Shown here in pieces: positions 12,098-17,253 of a DNA stretch of 56,688 nt; positions within the stretch are counted from its first letter, which is position 1, and the number at the start of each line of letters is the position of its first letter. The notes below the pieces were generated by a model, which made no database searches, was not told the origin of the DNA, and saw only the letters and a program-made list of their open reading frames with translations. The stretch is taken from assembly GCA_043798445.1 (NCBI GenBank), contig JAZDOQ010000018.1, positions 1 to 56,688 on the forward strand. The letters run 5' to 3'. The position numbers were made by a program, and so were the translations under genes. Source of the DNA: Candidatus Gottesmanbacteria bacterium. Its GTDB lineage: Bacteria > Patescibacteriota > Microgenomatia > UBA10105 > UBA927.

Positions 12098-12817
12098 ATG
12101 AAAACAACATTATTTATTACTATCATATCACTATTTTTACTTAGCATTTCTTCTTCTGTCGTTGCACAAACCGCTACCCTCTCTACCACCCCAACCGTGT
12201 CAGATAAAGCACAACAACTCGAGAATTTAAAAGATAGACTCGCAACAAAAGTTGCTGAACTACGGCAATCACAACGTATGGCAATATTTGGAAAAATTAA
12301 GTCTGTCAGCATTTCAACATTCACGGTTGAAACCAAAACAAAAGATTTAAAAATTGAACTGACTGACGACATAAAAATCTTCCAAATACTCAAAGGAAAA
12401 CGGACAGAATTGAAAACTGATAACCTGGAAAAAGGCGATGTCGTCACAGTATTTGGTGAATATGACAGCACACTCGAACTTCTCAAGGCAAAGGTTGTCT
12501 TCATTCAAGGAATAGATCCTGTACGCGCCTCCGGTACCATTACGGACGTCAAAAAAATTGATTACACCATCACTATTGAATCGGGAGACAAAAAAATATA
12601 CATTATCGATTTTGAAACAACGACTAAAACAGCTATCTGGAATGGAAGCACACAGGAAAAAGGCGGATTTTCCAAGTTTACCTTAGGAGATATCATCCAT
12701 GTCACAGGAACAGCCGTTCCCAAAAAAGAAAACCGCATCAGCGCAAGCCGTATACTCACGGTTATTGGACAAATAAAAGGTGTCACCACATCAGTTACTC
12801 CAACGCCAACCCCGTAG
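12098..12817 (+). CDS. Secreted protein with two OB-like (DUF5666-like) repeats
   Basis: Signal peptide; repeated G.I..(T.I)..L..GD.V.V.G pattern; TPTPTP tail. Confidence 0.6.
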   Translation: MKTTLFITIISLFLLSISSSVVAQTATLSTTPTVSDKAQQLENLKDRLATKVAELRQSQRMAIFGKIKSVSISTFTVETKTKDLKIELTDDIKIFQILKGKRTELKTDNLEKGDVVTVFGEYDSTLELLKAKVVFIQGIDPVRASGTITDVKKIDYTITIESGDKKIYIIDFETTTKTAIWNGSTQEKGGFSKFTLGDIIHVTGTAVPKKENRISASRILTVIGQIKGVTTSVTPTPTP

Positions 12818-12870
12818 AAAAAGCGCTATACCCCATGCCCAGCGGCATAATATACAACATTTTTAACGTG

Positions 12871-12879
12871 TGGTATACT
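12871..12879 (+). promoter_or_regulatory. Extended -10 promoter (TGgTATACT) for the his leader
   Basis: TG-N-TATACT 9 nt before the leader ATG. Confidence 0.6.
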
Positions 12880-12888
12880 ATCATTCTT

Positions 12889-12963
12889 ATGAATACCCGA
12901 TGTGCCGTTAGCTATTGGCATCATTATGCAACCCTTTTGGTTGACGGGTATTTTGTGGCATAA
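12889..12963 (+). CDS. Putative attenuator leader peptide MNTRCAVSYWHHYATLLVDGYFVA
   Basis: 24-codon ORF with tandem CAT CAT inside YWHHY, overlapping alternative stems upstream of hisC-hisS. Confidence 0.7.
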   Translation: MNTRCAVSYWHHYATLLVDGYFVA

Positions 12964-12986
12964 AACAATACATACTAAGCCACTTG

Positions 12987-13013
12987 AAGACCCGCAGCCA
13001 GGCGGGTTTTTTT
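12987..13013 (+). terminator. Attenuator terminator hairpin
   Basis: ACCCGC-AGCCAG-GCGGGT followed by a T-run, 12 nt upstream of the hisC ATG. Confidence 0.8.
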
Positions 13014-13025
13014 ATGGGGAAAACT

Positions 13026-14045
13026 ATGAATATACCAAACGTATACGCATCAGCTGTCAAAAAACAGCAACTGGACATGACCCTGAGTGAAAATCCCCTG
13101 GGGTGTTCTCCCCGTGCCATGCAGGCGCTCCAACAACTGACGATGAAGGATATTGCGACGTACCCGGATACTAGTCCGCTTCTTGCTGCGGCAGGCAAAC
13201 GCTTTGGCGTCAAACCGTCCTGCATGCTTGTGGGAAACGGGTCCGAACAGCTCATTAAACTGGCAGCACAAACGTTTCTGAAACCAGAAAGCACTGCGCT
13301 TGTACAATCTGGATCATTTTCCGTATTGAGCAAGGAATGCCTGCTGACCGATGCCAGCGTGACGCTTTGTGACGTAAATGATCTGGCAACTCAAACAATA
13401 AATCCTGATGTGGTATTTCTTTGCAATCCAAATAACCCGACGGGCGAAATCATTCCTAAAAAGACAATTAACCGCATCATTGCTGCGTTTCCAAACGCAG
13501 TTATCGTAATTGACGAGGCAAATGCGGAATTTTCAGGGCAAACAACAATTCCTGTAGCTATCAAAAAACAAAACGTGCTGATACTCCGGACATGCTCGAA
13601 AGCATTTGGACTTGCAGGGCTTCGTGTCGGTTTTCTCATCGGAAATCCTATGCTCGTTAAAAAACTCAACATTGCACAACAAGTGTTCCCTATCTCGTCG
13701 CTCTCGGTAACGCTTGCAAGCGCTGCAATAAACGATAGGGATTTTGCAGAAAAAACCATAGCGTTTATCAAAAAAGAACGAATCAGTATGATGAGTGCGC
13801 TAAAAAAGCGTGGGTTTATTGTGTCGCAATCCGTTACCAATACGTTGTTTGTCTCAACACCACGCGCTAAAACACTCATTGCTGCACTCAACGACAATGG
13901 TGTATCCGTGGTTGCAAATACCTTTTCTCCGGGACTCCGAACGCCGGGATTTCGCATTGCACTTCGGGACACAAAAACAAATCGTATGTTTTTGCAAAAA
14001 CTCGATGCAGCAATTGAACAAATAGGGTTAAACCTGATACGATAG
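13026..14045 (+). CDS. hisC: Histidinol-phosphate/aromatic aminotransferase (class I/II PLP)
   Basis: SENPLG, GNGSEQLI, CNPNNPTG, IDEA, RTCSKAFGLAGLRVG. Confidence 0.85.
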   Translation: MNIPNVYASAVKKQQLDMTLSENPLGCSPRAMQALQQLTMKDIATYPDTSPLLAAAGKRFGVKPSCMLVGNGSEQLIKLAAQTFLKPESTALVQSGSFSVLSKECLLTDASVTLCDVNDLATQTINPDVVFLCNPNNPTGEIIPKKTINRIIAAFPNAVIVIDEANAEFSGQTTIPVAIKKQNVLILRTCSKAFGLAGLRVGFLIGNPMLVKKLNIAQQVFPISSLSVTLASAAINDRDFAEKTIAFIKKERISMMSALKKRGFIVSQSVTNTLFVSTPRAKTLIAALNDNGVSVVANTFSPGLRTPGFRIALRDTKTNRMFLQKLDAAIEQIGLNLIR

Positions 14046-14061
14046 AAAAGGAATACACTTT

Positions 14062-15267
14062 ATGATTAAACCACAAACACTTAAAGGATTTCGTGATTTT
14101 TTGCCCGAAGAAGCAACAAAGCGCCAACGCGTGATGGAGATATTTCGAGATGTGTTCACACGGTTTGGATTTGAACCACTCGAAACACCGGCACTTGAAT
14201 ATGCTGAAACACTAACTGGCAAATATGGATCGGATGCAGATAAACTTCTGTATCTGTTTAAAGACAACGGTGGACGAGATGTTGGACTTCGCTATGACCA
14301 AACCGTTCCCCTGTCCCGCATCATGGCGCAATATCAAGATATTCCCCTTCCCTTTAAGCGTTACCAAATGCAGCCCGTTTGGCGTGCCGAAAAACCACAA
14401 AAAGGACGGTTTAGAGAATTTTTACAATGTGATATTGATATCGTTGGTGCTAAAAGTGAAACTGCTGACGTTGAAATCATCACTGCAACCATTGAGGCAC
14501 TTAGATCGCTCAATATTCCCAATCCCATTGTCACCATTAACGATCGAACACTCTTTGAATACTACAAAGTATCAAAGGCGGAAATTATCATCATTGATAA
14601 ATTGAATAAAATCGGTAAGGAAGCCGTCATCGAACTGCTCACGAAAGGCGGAAGGAAGGATGCAACAAATCTCTTTTCAACCTTTGAAAAGTCTGCGCCA
14701 ACTGCAAAACTCAAAACAATATTTACCATGCTTTCAAGCCAAGGATACAAAGAAGGTGTGGACTACGAATTCTCACCATTTTTGGCTCGAGGTCTTGATT
14801 ACTACACATCAACCATCTTTGAAGTGAGCATTCCAAGTTACGGCGCTGGATCTGTTGCTGGTGGTGGAAGATATGACGACCTCATTGGGCTTTTCAGTGG
14901 CAATCCACTCCCCGCTGTCGGTATCGCATTCGGATTTGACCGCATCATGGAAATACTCGCAGAAAAACAATTACTTTCATCTCAAGAAACCGGAGCAACT
15001 GTTCTTGTAACAGTATTTGATGAGGCGTCACGTATTGAGTCAGGAGAGATTGCTTCTACGCTACGGAACGCAAACATAAATACCGATCTTTACCTTGAAC
15101 CAGCAAAACTGGAAAAACAACTGAAATATGCAGATAAAAAGATGATACCGTACGTCATCGTGCAAGGGCCTGATGAAAAAACGAACGGCGTCGTACAACT
15201 GAAAGATATGAAAACAAGACAAAGCGACATGATATCCATAGAAGATGTCATTAAAAAGTTGTTATGA
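14062..15267 (+). CDS. hisS: Histidine--tRNA ligase
   Basis: KGFRDFLP, LRYDQTVP, GRFREFLQCD, ARGLDYYT, GGGRYD. Confidence 0.98.
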   Translation: MIKPQTLKGFRDFLPEEATKRQRVMEIFRDVFTRFGFEPLETPALEYAETLTGKYGSDADKLLYLFKDNGGRDVGLRYDQTVPLSRIMAQYQDIPLPFKRYQMQPVWRAEKPQKGRFREFLQCDIDIVGAKSETADVEIITATIEALRSLNIPNPIVTINDRTLFEYYKVSKAEIIIIDKLNKIGKEAVIELLTKGGRKDATNLFSTFEKSAPTAKLKTIFTMLSSQGYKEGVDYEFSPFLARGLDYYTSTIFEVSIPSYGAGSVAGGGRYDDLIGLFSGNPLPAVGIAFGFDRIMEILAEKQLLSSQETGATVLVTVFDEASRIESGEIASTLRNANINTDLYLEPAKLEKQLKYADKKMIPYVIVQGPDEKTNGVVQLKDMKTRQSDMISIEDVIKKLL

Positions 15268-16217
15268 CTCCTGTCCAAAAAGGCGTAATCGGGCTTATTA
15301 TCGCAAATATTATCTGGGGATTCGCCTCCCCTATTTTCAAGTGGAGTCTCACGAATATCCCTCCATTCACCCTTGCGTTTCTTCGTTTTTTTATTGCGAG
15401 CATCATTCTAGGCATTGTTCTTCGAAAAAACCTTGCTTTACCCATTAAAGACAAACATGATGTAAAACTCCTCATCATTCACGCACTTACCGGAATCACC
15501 GGCAACATCACTCTCTTCTTTCTTGGACTCCAGCTGACTCTTGCTATCAATGTTCCGGTCATTGCTTCATCTCAACCGATTATGATATTCCTCTTTGCGT
15601 ATCTCATACTCAAAGAGAAACTCAAATTGAACAAAGTGCTTGGTATGATTGTCGGAACCATCGGCATCCTCGCCATTGTCCTTGAACCAATCTATTATGC
15701 AGGAATTGATGGGAATACGCTTGGCAATTTTTTAATCGTGCTTGCAACTATTAGTGGAGCTATCGCTATGCTCATAGGAAGACAGCTGTTTCAAAAATAT
15801 GATCCCCTGGTATTAATGTTTTGGGCATTTGTCATAGGAACGCTTTCCTTTCTTCCCCCCGCACTTGTTGAGTACATAAGACAGCCAACCATATTTCAAA
15901 CCCTGGATATTCGAGGTATTGTCGGCATCATATTCGGATCCGTATTCTCAAGCACGATTGCCTACACACTCTACGCATACGGACTATCAAAAATTCAAGC
16001 AAGCGATGCATCACTTTTCATTTATATTGACCCTATTGCCGGTGCCGTTCTTTCGTATTTCATGCTCCATGAACCGATCACCATACCGTTTCTCATTGGC
16101 GCAGGCCTCATATTCACCGGTATCTATATTGCTGAACGCCGGATTCACTACCATCCATTCGGCAAACTCCGCATAAAATGTCCAGATTGCCAAACAAATC
16201 AATCTCATGTAAAATAG
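15264..16217 (+). CDS. EamA/DMT family transporter
   Basis: About 10 TMs in two EamA repeats (IWG, LRF, LKEK, P..A..LS...LHE). Confidence 0.9.
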
Positions 16218-16554: not shown

Positions 16555-17253
16555 ATGAACCCCAATATCGTCACTCTTGAATTCCGTGCGGGCCCAGGAG
16601 GCGAAGAAGCGAAGAACTGGTCCATGGATCTTATGCGCATGTACACACGCTACGCAAACATTCTCGGATGGAACGTGGAAGAAATTGCAGATAACGCCAT
16701 ACGGATCAAAGGAGAAGGCGCATTTACAAAACTCCAGTACGAAGCAGGAACCCATCGGGTACAGCGCGTTCCATCAACAGAACGTCAAGGAAGAATACAC
16801 ACATCAACAGCGACCGTTGCAGCCTTGCCTGAAATTCCGGAAGCAGACATTGCAATCCGCACCGAAGACATCACCTGGGAGTTTTACCGGGCAGGCGGCA
16901 AGGGTGGACAAAACGTCAATAAAGTAAGCTCTGCCGTCAGGCTTCGCCATATTCCGTCTGGACTTGTTGTCACCTGTCAATCAGAGAGGGATCAATTTCA
17001 AAACAGACAAGTGGCCCTTTCCCTTCTTCGGGCTAAACTCTGGGAAAAACGGGAAATGGAACAATCACTCGCCTTATCTGAACAACGTAGCATCATTGGC
17101 CGTGGCATGCGGGCTGAAAAAATCAGAACGTATAACTTTGCCCAGGACCGTGTCACAGATCATCGCATCAACAAATCATTCCACAACATTGATGCAATCA
17201 TGGATGGAAAATTACAGAAAATAACAGAAGCGATGGTGGAGTTATTGAAGTAA
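16555..17253 (+). CDS. prfA: Peptide chain release factor 1, lacking N-terminal domain 1
   Basis: EFRAGPGGEEA, HRVQRVPSTE (PxT), GGQNVN, IRTYNF; follows rpmE. Confidence 0.88.
   Translation: MNPNIVTLEFRAGPGGEEAKNWSMDLMRMYTRYANILGWNVEEIADNAIRIKGEGAFTKLQYEAGTHRVQRVPSTERQGRIHTSTATVAALPEIPEADIAIRTEDITWEFYRAGGKGGQNVNKVSSAVRLRHIPSGLVVTCQSERDQFQNRQVALSLLRAKLWEKREMEQSLALSEQRSIIGRGMRAEKIRTYNFAQDRVTDHRINKSFHNIDAIMDGKLQKITEAMVELLK

Follow-up and report, generated by a model that had tools for sequence, protein, structure and literature searches.

The 56,688-nucleotide (nt) contig JAZDOQ010000018.1 of a Candidatus Gottesmanbacteria genome (GCA_043798445.1), referred to below as the window, carries three consecutive genes on the plus strand for a HisC-family aminotransferase, histidyl-tRNA synthetase (hisS) and an EamA-family transporter. 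Between an extended −10 box and the first of these genes lie a short upstream open reading frame (uORF), the strands of three RNA pairings and an intrinsic terminator, as listed in Table 1. The element composed of these parts is very probably a ribosome-mediated leader-peptide transcription attenuator.

The first-pass annotation, made from the letters alone, had described the −10 box, the uORF, its Tyr-Trp-His-His-Tyr (YWHHY) codons, the three pairings and the terminator, and on reading positions 12500–13300 all of these parts were found in place. The leader peptide, translated from 12889–12963, is MNTRCAVSYWHHYATLLVDGYFVA. The antiterminator pairing joins CGGGT..GTGGC (12945–12959) with GCCAC..ACCCG (12979–12994), and the terminator ends 13 nt before the ATG of the HisC-family gene. 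Because there is no space for a Shine-Dalgarno site upstream of the uORF, the leader is probably translated in a leaderless or nearly leaderless manner.

The 5' strand of the antiterminator mimics the 3' strand of the terminator, including the U-run and the following GUGG/AUGG (12950–12960 and 13007–13018), and does so in most members of the family; the CCAC located 5' of the terminator is able to pair with either copy. This imitation accounts for the invariant TGTGGCATAA at the end of the uORF in the closest homologues. The GGGTATTTTGTG stretch also resembles a consensus pause motif of RNA polymerase.

A scan with consensus promoter and terminator patterns did not list the terminator of the window, and its totals were no higher than those obtained with shuffled sequences, so that its output is not used as evidence. 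The terminator may have been missed because an A/G-U extension of the stem consumes the T-run.

Table 1. Positions of the leader element and the downstream genes in the window.
Feature	Position	Strand	Basis or remark
Weak −35-like hexamer TATACA	12851–12856	+	17 nt 5' of the −10 box; consensus match only, at 9 of 12 positions, with TG before the second hexamer
Extended −10 box TGgTATACT	12871–12879	+	TGnTAnnAT box, aligned and conserved in the 4 closest homologues
Leader uORF, 24 sense codons and TAA (12961–12963)	12889–12963	+	ATG 9 nt after the −10 box
Segment 1, AATACCCG	12892–12899	+	Pairs with CGGGTATT (12945–12952)
Sensor codons TAT TGG CAT CAT TAT (Y W H H Y)	12913–12927	+	Read in the sequence; cassette kept before hisC orthologues
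Segment 2, antiterminator 5' strand (AACCC.TTTGGTTG.CGGGT, then GTGGC)	12930–12959	+	Folding centroid and masked folding
Segment 3, GCCAC and terminator 5' arm ACCCGC	12979–12995	+	Sequence, folding and masked folding
Intrinsic terminator ACCCGC-AGCCAG-GCGGGT and T7	12990–13013	+	Arms 12990–12995 and 13002–13007; sequence and folding
HisC-family class I/II aminotransferase, 339 amino acids	13026–14045	+	Pfam PF00155 Aminotran_1_2, 5.3e-40
Promoter-like TGaTACGAT within the 3' end of the hisC-family gene	14035–14043	+	18 nt 5' of the hisS ATG; putative, from the motif
hisS, histidyl-tRNA synthetase, 401 amino acids	14062–15267	+	Pfam PF13393, PF03129
EamA-family (DMT) transporter	15264–16217	+	Pfam PF00892; ATG overlaps the hisS stop codon (ATGA)

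Conservation and covariation of the element

A DNA search of 41 related genomes, including that of the window (G000), located the leader in three further genomes (G003, G021 and G001). In these three, the ATG comes 8 nt after a TGnTATAAT box and opens a frame of 23–24 codons that has the invariant GTGGCATAA at its end; the frame is followed by a terminator with the arms CCCGC and GCGGG and seven T residues. The covariance model R1, which was built from these three elements and that of the window, matched 50 of the 81 family genomes when E ≤ 0.01 was required, and none of these has more than three copies. A second model, R2, built from 30 of the R1 matches, gave matches in 30 of 151 genomes sampled from the class and belonging to many families, where the tally counts one unpublished genome (G152) that was not used further. 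Of 151 genomes sampled from the phylum, 5 had matches to R2, and the 3 that lie outside the class look genuine on reading. In the window's own genome, only the element described here is convincing; two other weak matches (L145 and L146; E of about 0.8) were considered as further elements and rejected as unconvincing on reading.

The set of elements that was read comprises 56 elements in 55 loci. The uORF is present at the aligned place in all 56 (52 by script and 4 by eye), and its length is 14–28 codons in the 52 scored by script and 33 codons in the frame set by hand at L169. The gap between the −10 box and the ATG is 7–9 nt in 34 of the 52 script-scored elements, and 31 of the 52 have the TG extension. 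Every element has a GC-rich stem that is directly followed by 6–8 U residues. The element is about 125 nt long and has no conserved unpaired core outside the helices, and several loci have 80 to more than 300 nt between the terminator and the start codon that follows. The lack of a conserved uORF or stems in relatives had been named beforehand as the result that would speak against an attenuator; what was found is a set of homologous elements that combine a uORF with a terminator.

A subgroup of six elements (L042, L057, L060, L061, L062 and L159) has leaders of the type ..VHMF.LITLRKGEV.VVSA, with Ile, Leu, Thr and Met in their centres, and no long open reading frame (ORF) was found within 1.5 kb downstream of these with translation table 11. 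At L167, two tandem elements on the minus strand (1025–1177 and 1501–1656), about 480 nt apart, have the leaders CIFFGLIIM and KYFVFFF, and each is followed by a short ORF.

The terminator cores vary among the 56 elements (CCCGC, CCCCGC, CCUCC, CCCCU, CCGCC and others), and the antiterminator arms covary with their own terminators, which bears out the covarying stems that the first-pass annotation had proposed to look for in relatives. The 3' part of the uORF pairs with the 5' arm of its own terminator at a mean of −13.39 kcal mol−1, whereas the mean with arms of a different core is −9.81 kcal mol−1; the cognate mean was reached in none of 10000 permutations. For 45 of the 56 elements, the natural pairing is equalled by no more than 5% of the shuffled sequences. 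The three modelled helices are 85.7% paired compared with 63.5% in shuffles, and the covariation score is 0.535 compared with at most 0.149 when the partners are slid against each other. In the family alignment, which was fitted to the model structure and thereby favours the helices, and whose related members are not independent, changes on both sides occur in 6 of 6 pairs of helix 1 (segment 1), with 75% of the cells paired, and in 6 of 8 pairs of the terminator helix, with 96% of the cells paired.

Ribosome position and leader codons

The region 12885–13030 (146 nt) folds with a minimum free energy (MFE) of −48 kcal mol−1 (z = −3.66), and none of 200 shuffled sequences was as stable. The MFE structure contains the pairing of segments 1 and 2 together with the terminator. 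The centroid structure (−47.1 kcal mol−1) corresponds to the alternative state, where an 18-base-pair antiterminator is formed by the pairing of 12930–12949 with both arms and the loop of the terminator.

The effect of ribosome position was computed by masking a footprint from −15 to +12 relative to the first base of the A-site codon, which was moved codon by codon, with partition-function folding at equilibrium only. When the RNA located 5' of the ribosome was also blocked, the terminator probability was 0.00–0.02 with the A site at codons 2–13 and 0.94–1.00 from codon 14 onward. The switch between codons 13 and 14 means that the YWHHY codons (codons 9–13) are the last five positions that permit the antiterminator. 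The alternatively constrained folding that had been proposed as a check thus places the flip from antiterminator to terminator just after these codons.

Across the family, 50 of the 56 elements switch under masking. The switch position is closer to the most repetitive five-codon window of the leader than in all of 10000 random placements. Only 21 of the 50 switch boundaries lie within −2 to +1 of that window; pairs of Gly or Val toward the C-terminal end sometimes satisfy the definition of the most repetitive window (offsets of −8 to −10). Relative to codons elsewhere, those for aromatic residues and His are 2.5- to 14-fold enriched among the five that precede the switch, with frequencies of 0.188 and 0.035 for Tyr, 0.184 and 0.049 for Phe, 0.084 and 0.006 for Trp, and 0.064 and 0.026 for His, respectively. 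With its homologues, the covariation and the masking profiles, the element is not a chance pattern.

The codons of the leaders correspond to the genes that follow them. Elements precede hisS operons in G001, G003, G021, G045, G048, G083 and G036. Leaders with HHH (G001), YHH and FWYRH are found before genes identified as hisS by Pfam (loci L035/L032, L036, L038/L034 and L059), and those with HHSHH, WYHTH, WYHH and HWYYY before ORFs taken as hisS by their N-terminus only (L037, L039, L054 and L148). Among these, FWYRH in G003 precedes a gene for an M20-family deacylase and hisS, and HWYYY in G021 precedes a radical SAM gene followed by an ORF whose N-terminus resembles that of hisS. An HHSHH leader also lies 5' of a gene whose best matches, below the cut-off, are histidine racemases. 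For other amino acids, FFAFNF precedes pheS; YFYFYF and YYYYF precede a DAHP synthase gene accompanied by one for DHQ synthase or prephenate dehydrogenase; and FFYYF (L040) precedes a weak DAHP-synthase-like ORF (19.6 bits with a cut-off of 25.5) and a prephenate dehydratase gene. Leaders with YYWH, YYWHF, YWYY and FWFYY are followed by an aminotransferase or amino-acid racemase gene and then by a class Ib Trp/Tyr synthetase gene, and the Lys-containing leaders ISKMIK (L158) and MKSKK (L160) by class I lysyl-tRNA synthetase genes.

Several of the leader-controlled synthetase operons contain candidate salvage enzymes, which are a His-racemase-like protein below the cut-off (L039:652–1491, minus strand), an amino-acid racemase of the Asp/Glu racemase family above the TIGR00035 cut-off (L047:656–1390, minus strand), and an ArgE/DapE-family deacylase (L035:420–1418, minus strand).

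When hisC orthologues were fetched from relatives (36–51% identity), the element was found directly 5' of all six, with R2 E-values of 3e-11 to 5e-4. Their cassettes are SVHHY, YSHHY, NWHY, WYCHCH, VWHH and IWYHH, compared with SYWHHY in the window, and in G083 AWYHTH precedes a hisC-like gene that is followed by an ORF with a hisS-like N-terminus. A scan of genome contigs guided by the hisC protein gave only matches of about 27–35% identity in other phyla and no close relatives, and its loci (L065–L144) were left aside. The retention of mixed cassettes across the hisC leaders indicates that operons of this type conserve aromatic codons beside His, and that the combination did not arise by accident in a single genome. 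This conservation also supports the earlier suggestion that Tyr and Trp are sensed besides His.

In the proposed mechanism, transcription would start from the extended −10 box a few bases 5' of the ATG at 12889, and the leader would be translated without a Shine-Dalgarno site. When charged tRNA-His, tRNA-Tyr and tRNA-Trp are plentiful, the ribosome would pass codon 13 toward the stop codon at 12961 and cover segment 2; the ACCCGC/GCGGGT hairpin and U7 would then form, and RNA polymerase would stop before reaching the aminotransferase gene. In a shortage, a stall on the Tyr-Trp-His-His-Tyr codons would leave segment 2 free to pair with the 5' arm and the loop of the terminator, and this pairing would allow readthrough into the HisC-family gene, hisS and the EamA gene. 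If the leader is not translated, segment 1 could hold segment 2, which would favour termination. The geometry of his/trp-type attenuation that the first-pass annotation had recognized is complete in the element: it has a leader ORF, codons tied to the downstream genes, a terminator, an exclusive antiterminator and, in equilibrium folding, a switch that depends on the ribosome position.

Downstream genes and extent of control

The aminotransferase scores 211.8 bits with the NCBIfam equivalog model for hisC (TIGR01141), below its cut-off of 276.55, although hisC is still the best NCBIfam match. Neither hisD nor IGPD has a match anywhere in the window's genome, which is 87.6% complete, and one match to the His_biosynth family lies on another contig. 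The name hisC given in the first-pass annotation therefore holds as a statement of family membership but not as the HisC equivalog, because the score is below the cut-off and the His pathway was not found, and HisC-family aminotransferase is the preferred name. The enzyme is 35% identical to the aminotransferase of an operon with a YYWH leader that holds a class Ib Trp/Tyr synthetase gene, and it may act in salvage on the keto acids of His, of the aromatic amino acids, or of both. The EamA-family transporter has weak, below-cut-off NCBIfam matches to the 2A78 carboxylate/amino acid/amine transporter and to YddG.

The promoter-like TGaTACGAT motif upstream of hisS also precedes hisS in G001, where it lies 3' of the leader terminator, and in G005 and G006. 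Because this motif is conserved in the three genomes, hisS probably has a basal promoter, which may be older than an inserted module of leader and hisC. The whole operon had been placed under the attenuator in the first-pass annotation. This description fits the aminotransferase gene, which would be entirely controlled by the attenuator, whereas hisS and the EamA gene, given the motif at 14035–14043, are probably only boosted by it. Complete dependence of hisS on the attenuator was considered and dropped as unproven in view of the same motif.

Related boxes are found elsewhere. In G002 and G004 (L178 and L179), a TGaTACnAT box lies 6 nt 5' of the hisS ATG, so that hisS seems to have a leaderless type of start there. 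In the window's own genome, a crude set of 573 long ORFs contains 38 with TGnTAnnAT 6–10 nt 5' of their ATG, and the box is rare at other distances, a spacing from which leaderless gene starts appear to be common genome-wide. Farther along the window, a promoter-like TTGCCA-17-TAAAAT (16187–16215) lies 5' of the L31 gene at 16225. The release-factor ORF at 16555–17253 encodes only 232 amino acids and matches positions 102–194 of the 194-position PCRF profile; its N-terminal part is seemingly missing or in another frame.

The label CPR-like (candidate phyla radiation) that was given to the window in the first-pass annotation agrees with the genome sizes of 0.6–1.9 Mb across the family, class and phylum samples, with the missing His pathway genes, and with the result that ribosomal protein L30 has no match in the window's genome. 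A missing L30 is linked to the CPR.

Alternative explanations and relation to known systems

Several observations weigh against the attenuator as described above. The unmasked RNA of the window is ambiguous, with a terminator probability of 0.52. If base pairing across the stalled ribosome is permitted in the folding, the antiterminator persists only up to codon 11, and stalling at the second His codon or at the final Tyr codon would then be of no help. Segment 1 sits behind the footprint of a ribosome stalled at the His codons, and we speculate that its masking in the classical manner would need a second ribosome at the start codon or steric exclusion. In 6 of the 56 elements, the terminator probability never falls below 0.5 under masking, and the fitted alignment and the kinship of its members reduce the force of the covariation. 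The window leader has only two His codons and those of its nearest homologues, in G003 (FWYRH) and G021 (HWYYY), one each, so that the specificity for His is not strict. Within the genus, 3 of 7 genomes have the element and 4 do not; in G005 and G006, hisS is 84–85% identical to that of the window and the closest to it among the relatives, yet the leader and hisC are both absent. As hisS has a promoter-like motif of its own, control of hisS and the EamA gene by the attenuator may be partial.

Trp or Tyr codons flank His in all eight leaders of HisC-family genes that have a hisC-like context (G000, G009, G028, G029, G030, G036, G040 and G083), at identities down to 36%, and the leaders of G003 and G021 retain one His codon with at least two aromatic codons. 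These leaders, together with the failure to find hisD and IGPD in the genome and the paralogous aminotransferase that adjoins a Trp/Tyr synthetase behind YYWH leaders, make it unlikely that the element is a pure histidine sensor that depends on the two CAT codons alone, the Tyr and Trp codons being structural or inherited. Such a sensor would suit the presence of hisS in the operon, the best NCBIfam match of the enzyme to hisC, the HHH (G001) and HHSHH (G045) leaders before hisS operons, and the presence of at least two His codons in 6 of the 8 leaders of hisS operons.

The other explanations concern the output of the element and the role of its open frame. The uORF could instead mask or unmask the ribosome-binding region of the aminotransferase gene, as in the leaderless polycysteine short ORFs of mycobacteria; the terminator lies 13 nt from the ATG, its hairpin adjoins the GGGG/AAAA start region, and leaderless short-ORF translational attenuators are documented (10.1101/834739). 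However, a GC-rich stem with 6–8 U residues in every element is the signature of an intrinsic terminator, for which masking has no need, and with terminators 80 to more than 300 nt from the start codon in several loci, translational control is very unlikely. An attenuator that binds a ligand, a tRNA or a protein, with an incidental open frame, has a smaller chance still of being correct: none of the 56 elements has lost the ATG or the open frame, the codon runs track gene function, no Rfam family matches at the site, and an element of about 125 nt shows no conserved unpaired core apart from the helices, even if T-boxes occur in the same genomes and alternative structures would suit any attenuator. 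It is scarcely credible that the short frame serves to make a peptide with a function of its own, such as a precursor on which the radical SAM enzyme of G021 would act. A radical SAM/SPASM-like gene does follow the homologue in G021 and the peptides are rich in aromatic residues, but their sequences are unconserved beyond the constraints of the RNA helices, the genes that usually lie beside them encode tRNA synthetases and amino-acid enzymes, and the radical SAM gene in G021 is itself followed by the ORF with the hisS-like N-terminus.

For the preferred reading as a ribosome-mediated attenuator, comparison with Rfam 15 gave no family at the gathering threshold at or near the site. At E ≤ 10, Trp_leader (RF00513) matched with 22.1 bits compared with a gathering threshold of 41, where the aligned part is mostly the terminator, and the other weak matches (Leu_leader, STnc370 and isrK) were likewise mostly driven by the terminator. 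The His_leader family (RF00514) was not listed at the site even at E ≤ 10.

The element resembles the hisL, trp and pheST leaders of Escherichia coli and Salmonella in its short ORF with codons for the regulated amino acids, its terminator before the first gene, an antiterminator that overlaps this terminator, and a pairing of segments 1 and 2 through which an untranslated leader favours termination. It differs from them in several respects. Two His codons stand in a mixed Tyr-Trp-His-His-Tyr cassette, whereas hisL has seven consecutive His codons (the enterobacterial his leader is described in PMC3896937). There is no room for a Shine-Dalgarno site and no similarity in sequence or to the models. 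In contrast to the enterobacterial leaders, the element would control genes for an aminotransferase, an aminoacyl-tRNA synthetase and a transporter, and no His pathway was found in its genome; moreover, one related scaffold carries different codon cassettes at different operons.

Another parallel is found in bacilli, where His leader peptides were predicted 5' of a hisS paralogue and of hisZ (Naville and Gautheret 2010, PMC2965389). As described there, these elements likewise place a short ORF with His codons and a premature terminator before a hisS-family gene, and they show that control of hisS-type genes can pass from a T-box to a leader peptide. The bacilli belong to another lineage and their codon stretches are His-only, in a comparison made by description.

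The polycysteine leaderless short ORFs of mycobacteria expose a sequestered ribosome-binding site, according to Canestrari et al. (10.1101/834739). As in these, the mRNA of the present element would begin at or close to its sensory short ORF, which lacks a Shine-Dalgarno site, where leaderless initiation is judged here from spacing only, and several operons share one kind of sensor. Unlike them, its output is not the unmasking of a ribosome-binding site, and every member has the stem and U-tract of a terminator. Work by Shell and colleagues from 2015 reportedly also concerns mycobacterial leaderless short ORFs.

The T-box (RF00230) is likewise a conserved scaffold with a swappable specificity element, located before aminoacyl-tRNA synthetase and amino-acid genes and read out by terminator and antiterminator. 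T-boxes, however, act through direct binding of uncharged tRNA, independently of translation. No T-box match was found in the window. T-box matches occur in 75 of the 81 family genomes at E ≤ 0.001, and 10 of the 81 have matches over the Rfam cut-off; this rules out the leaders as a replacement for T-boxes and contradicts the description of the lineage as regulation-poor in the first-pass annotation. The window's own genome has two T-box matches, at G000:C28:21657–21945 (91.2 bits) and G000:C34:6235–6399 (57.4 bits), both below the cut-off of 93. With ORFs named by eye from their translations, the former lies before methyltransferase-like, MetE-like and tyrosyl-tRNA-synthetase-like ORFs and the latter before a fumarate/argininosuccinate-lyase-like ORF.

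The element belongs to a new and widespread RNA family with no match in Rfam 15, and its mechanism is in itself classical, which limits the surprise. It is unusual in its probably leaderless initiation, in a scaffold that is shared between operons while the cassettes are exchanged, and in a conserved sensor that combines His with aromatic amino acids. Literature searches by term gave no description of attenuators in this lineage; the co-mentions among the papers listed seemed unrelated by title or abstract, and in one of them the term denoted bacteriocin leader peptides.

We give about even odds to a broader proposal. In a class of bacteria with very small genomes, probably of the CPR, a single scaffold related in sequence and structure, probably leaderless, would serve as a general amino-acid sensor that is retargeted by swapping a five-codon cassette, much as a T-box is by its specifier. 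Working alongside T-boxes, it would govern operons for salvage plus charging, which combine an aminotransferase, racemase or deacylase gene with that of the cognate synthetase and sometimes a transporter. The Trp/Tyr-His-His-Tyr cassette would then be a sensor of several amino acids, His or aromatic, coupled to a salvage aminotransferase of broad specificity where the His pathway is lacking.

Little is known of gene regulation in uncultivated bacteria with small genomes. The element would provide a report, readable from the sequence, of the amino acids that are sensed, which here would be the charging of His, Tyr and Trp tRNAs and in relatives Phe, Lys, aromatic and probably branched-chain amino acids. 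The response to shortage would be the induction of salvage enzymes, a transporter and the matching tRNA synthetase. The pattern suggests that many unannotated ORFs of 15–30 codons could be annotated in the same way, and the elements would offer small, modular switches responsive to amino acids that could be tested in vitro without growing the organism.

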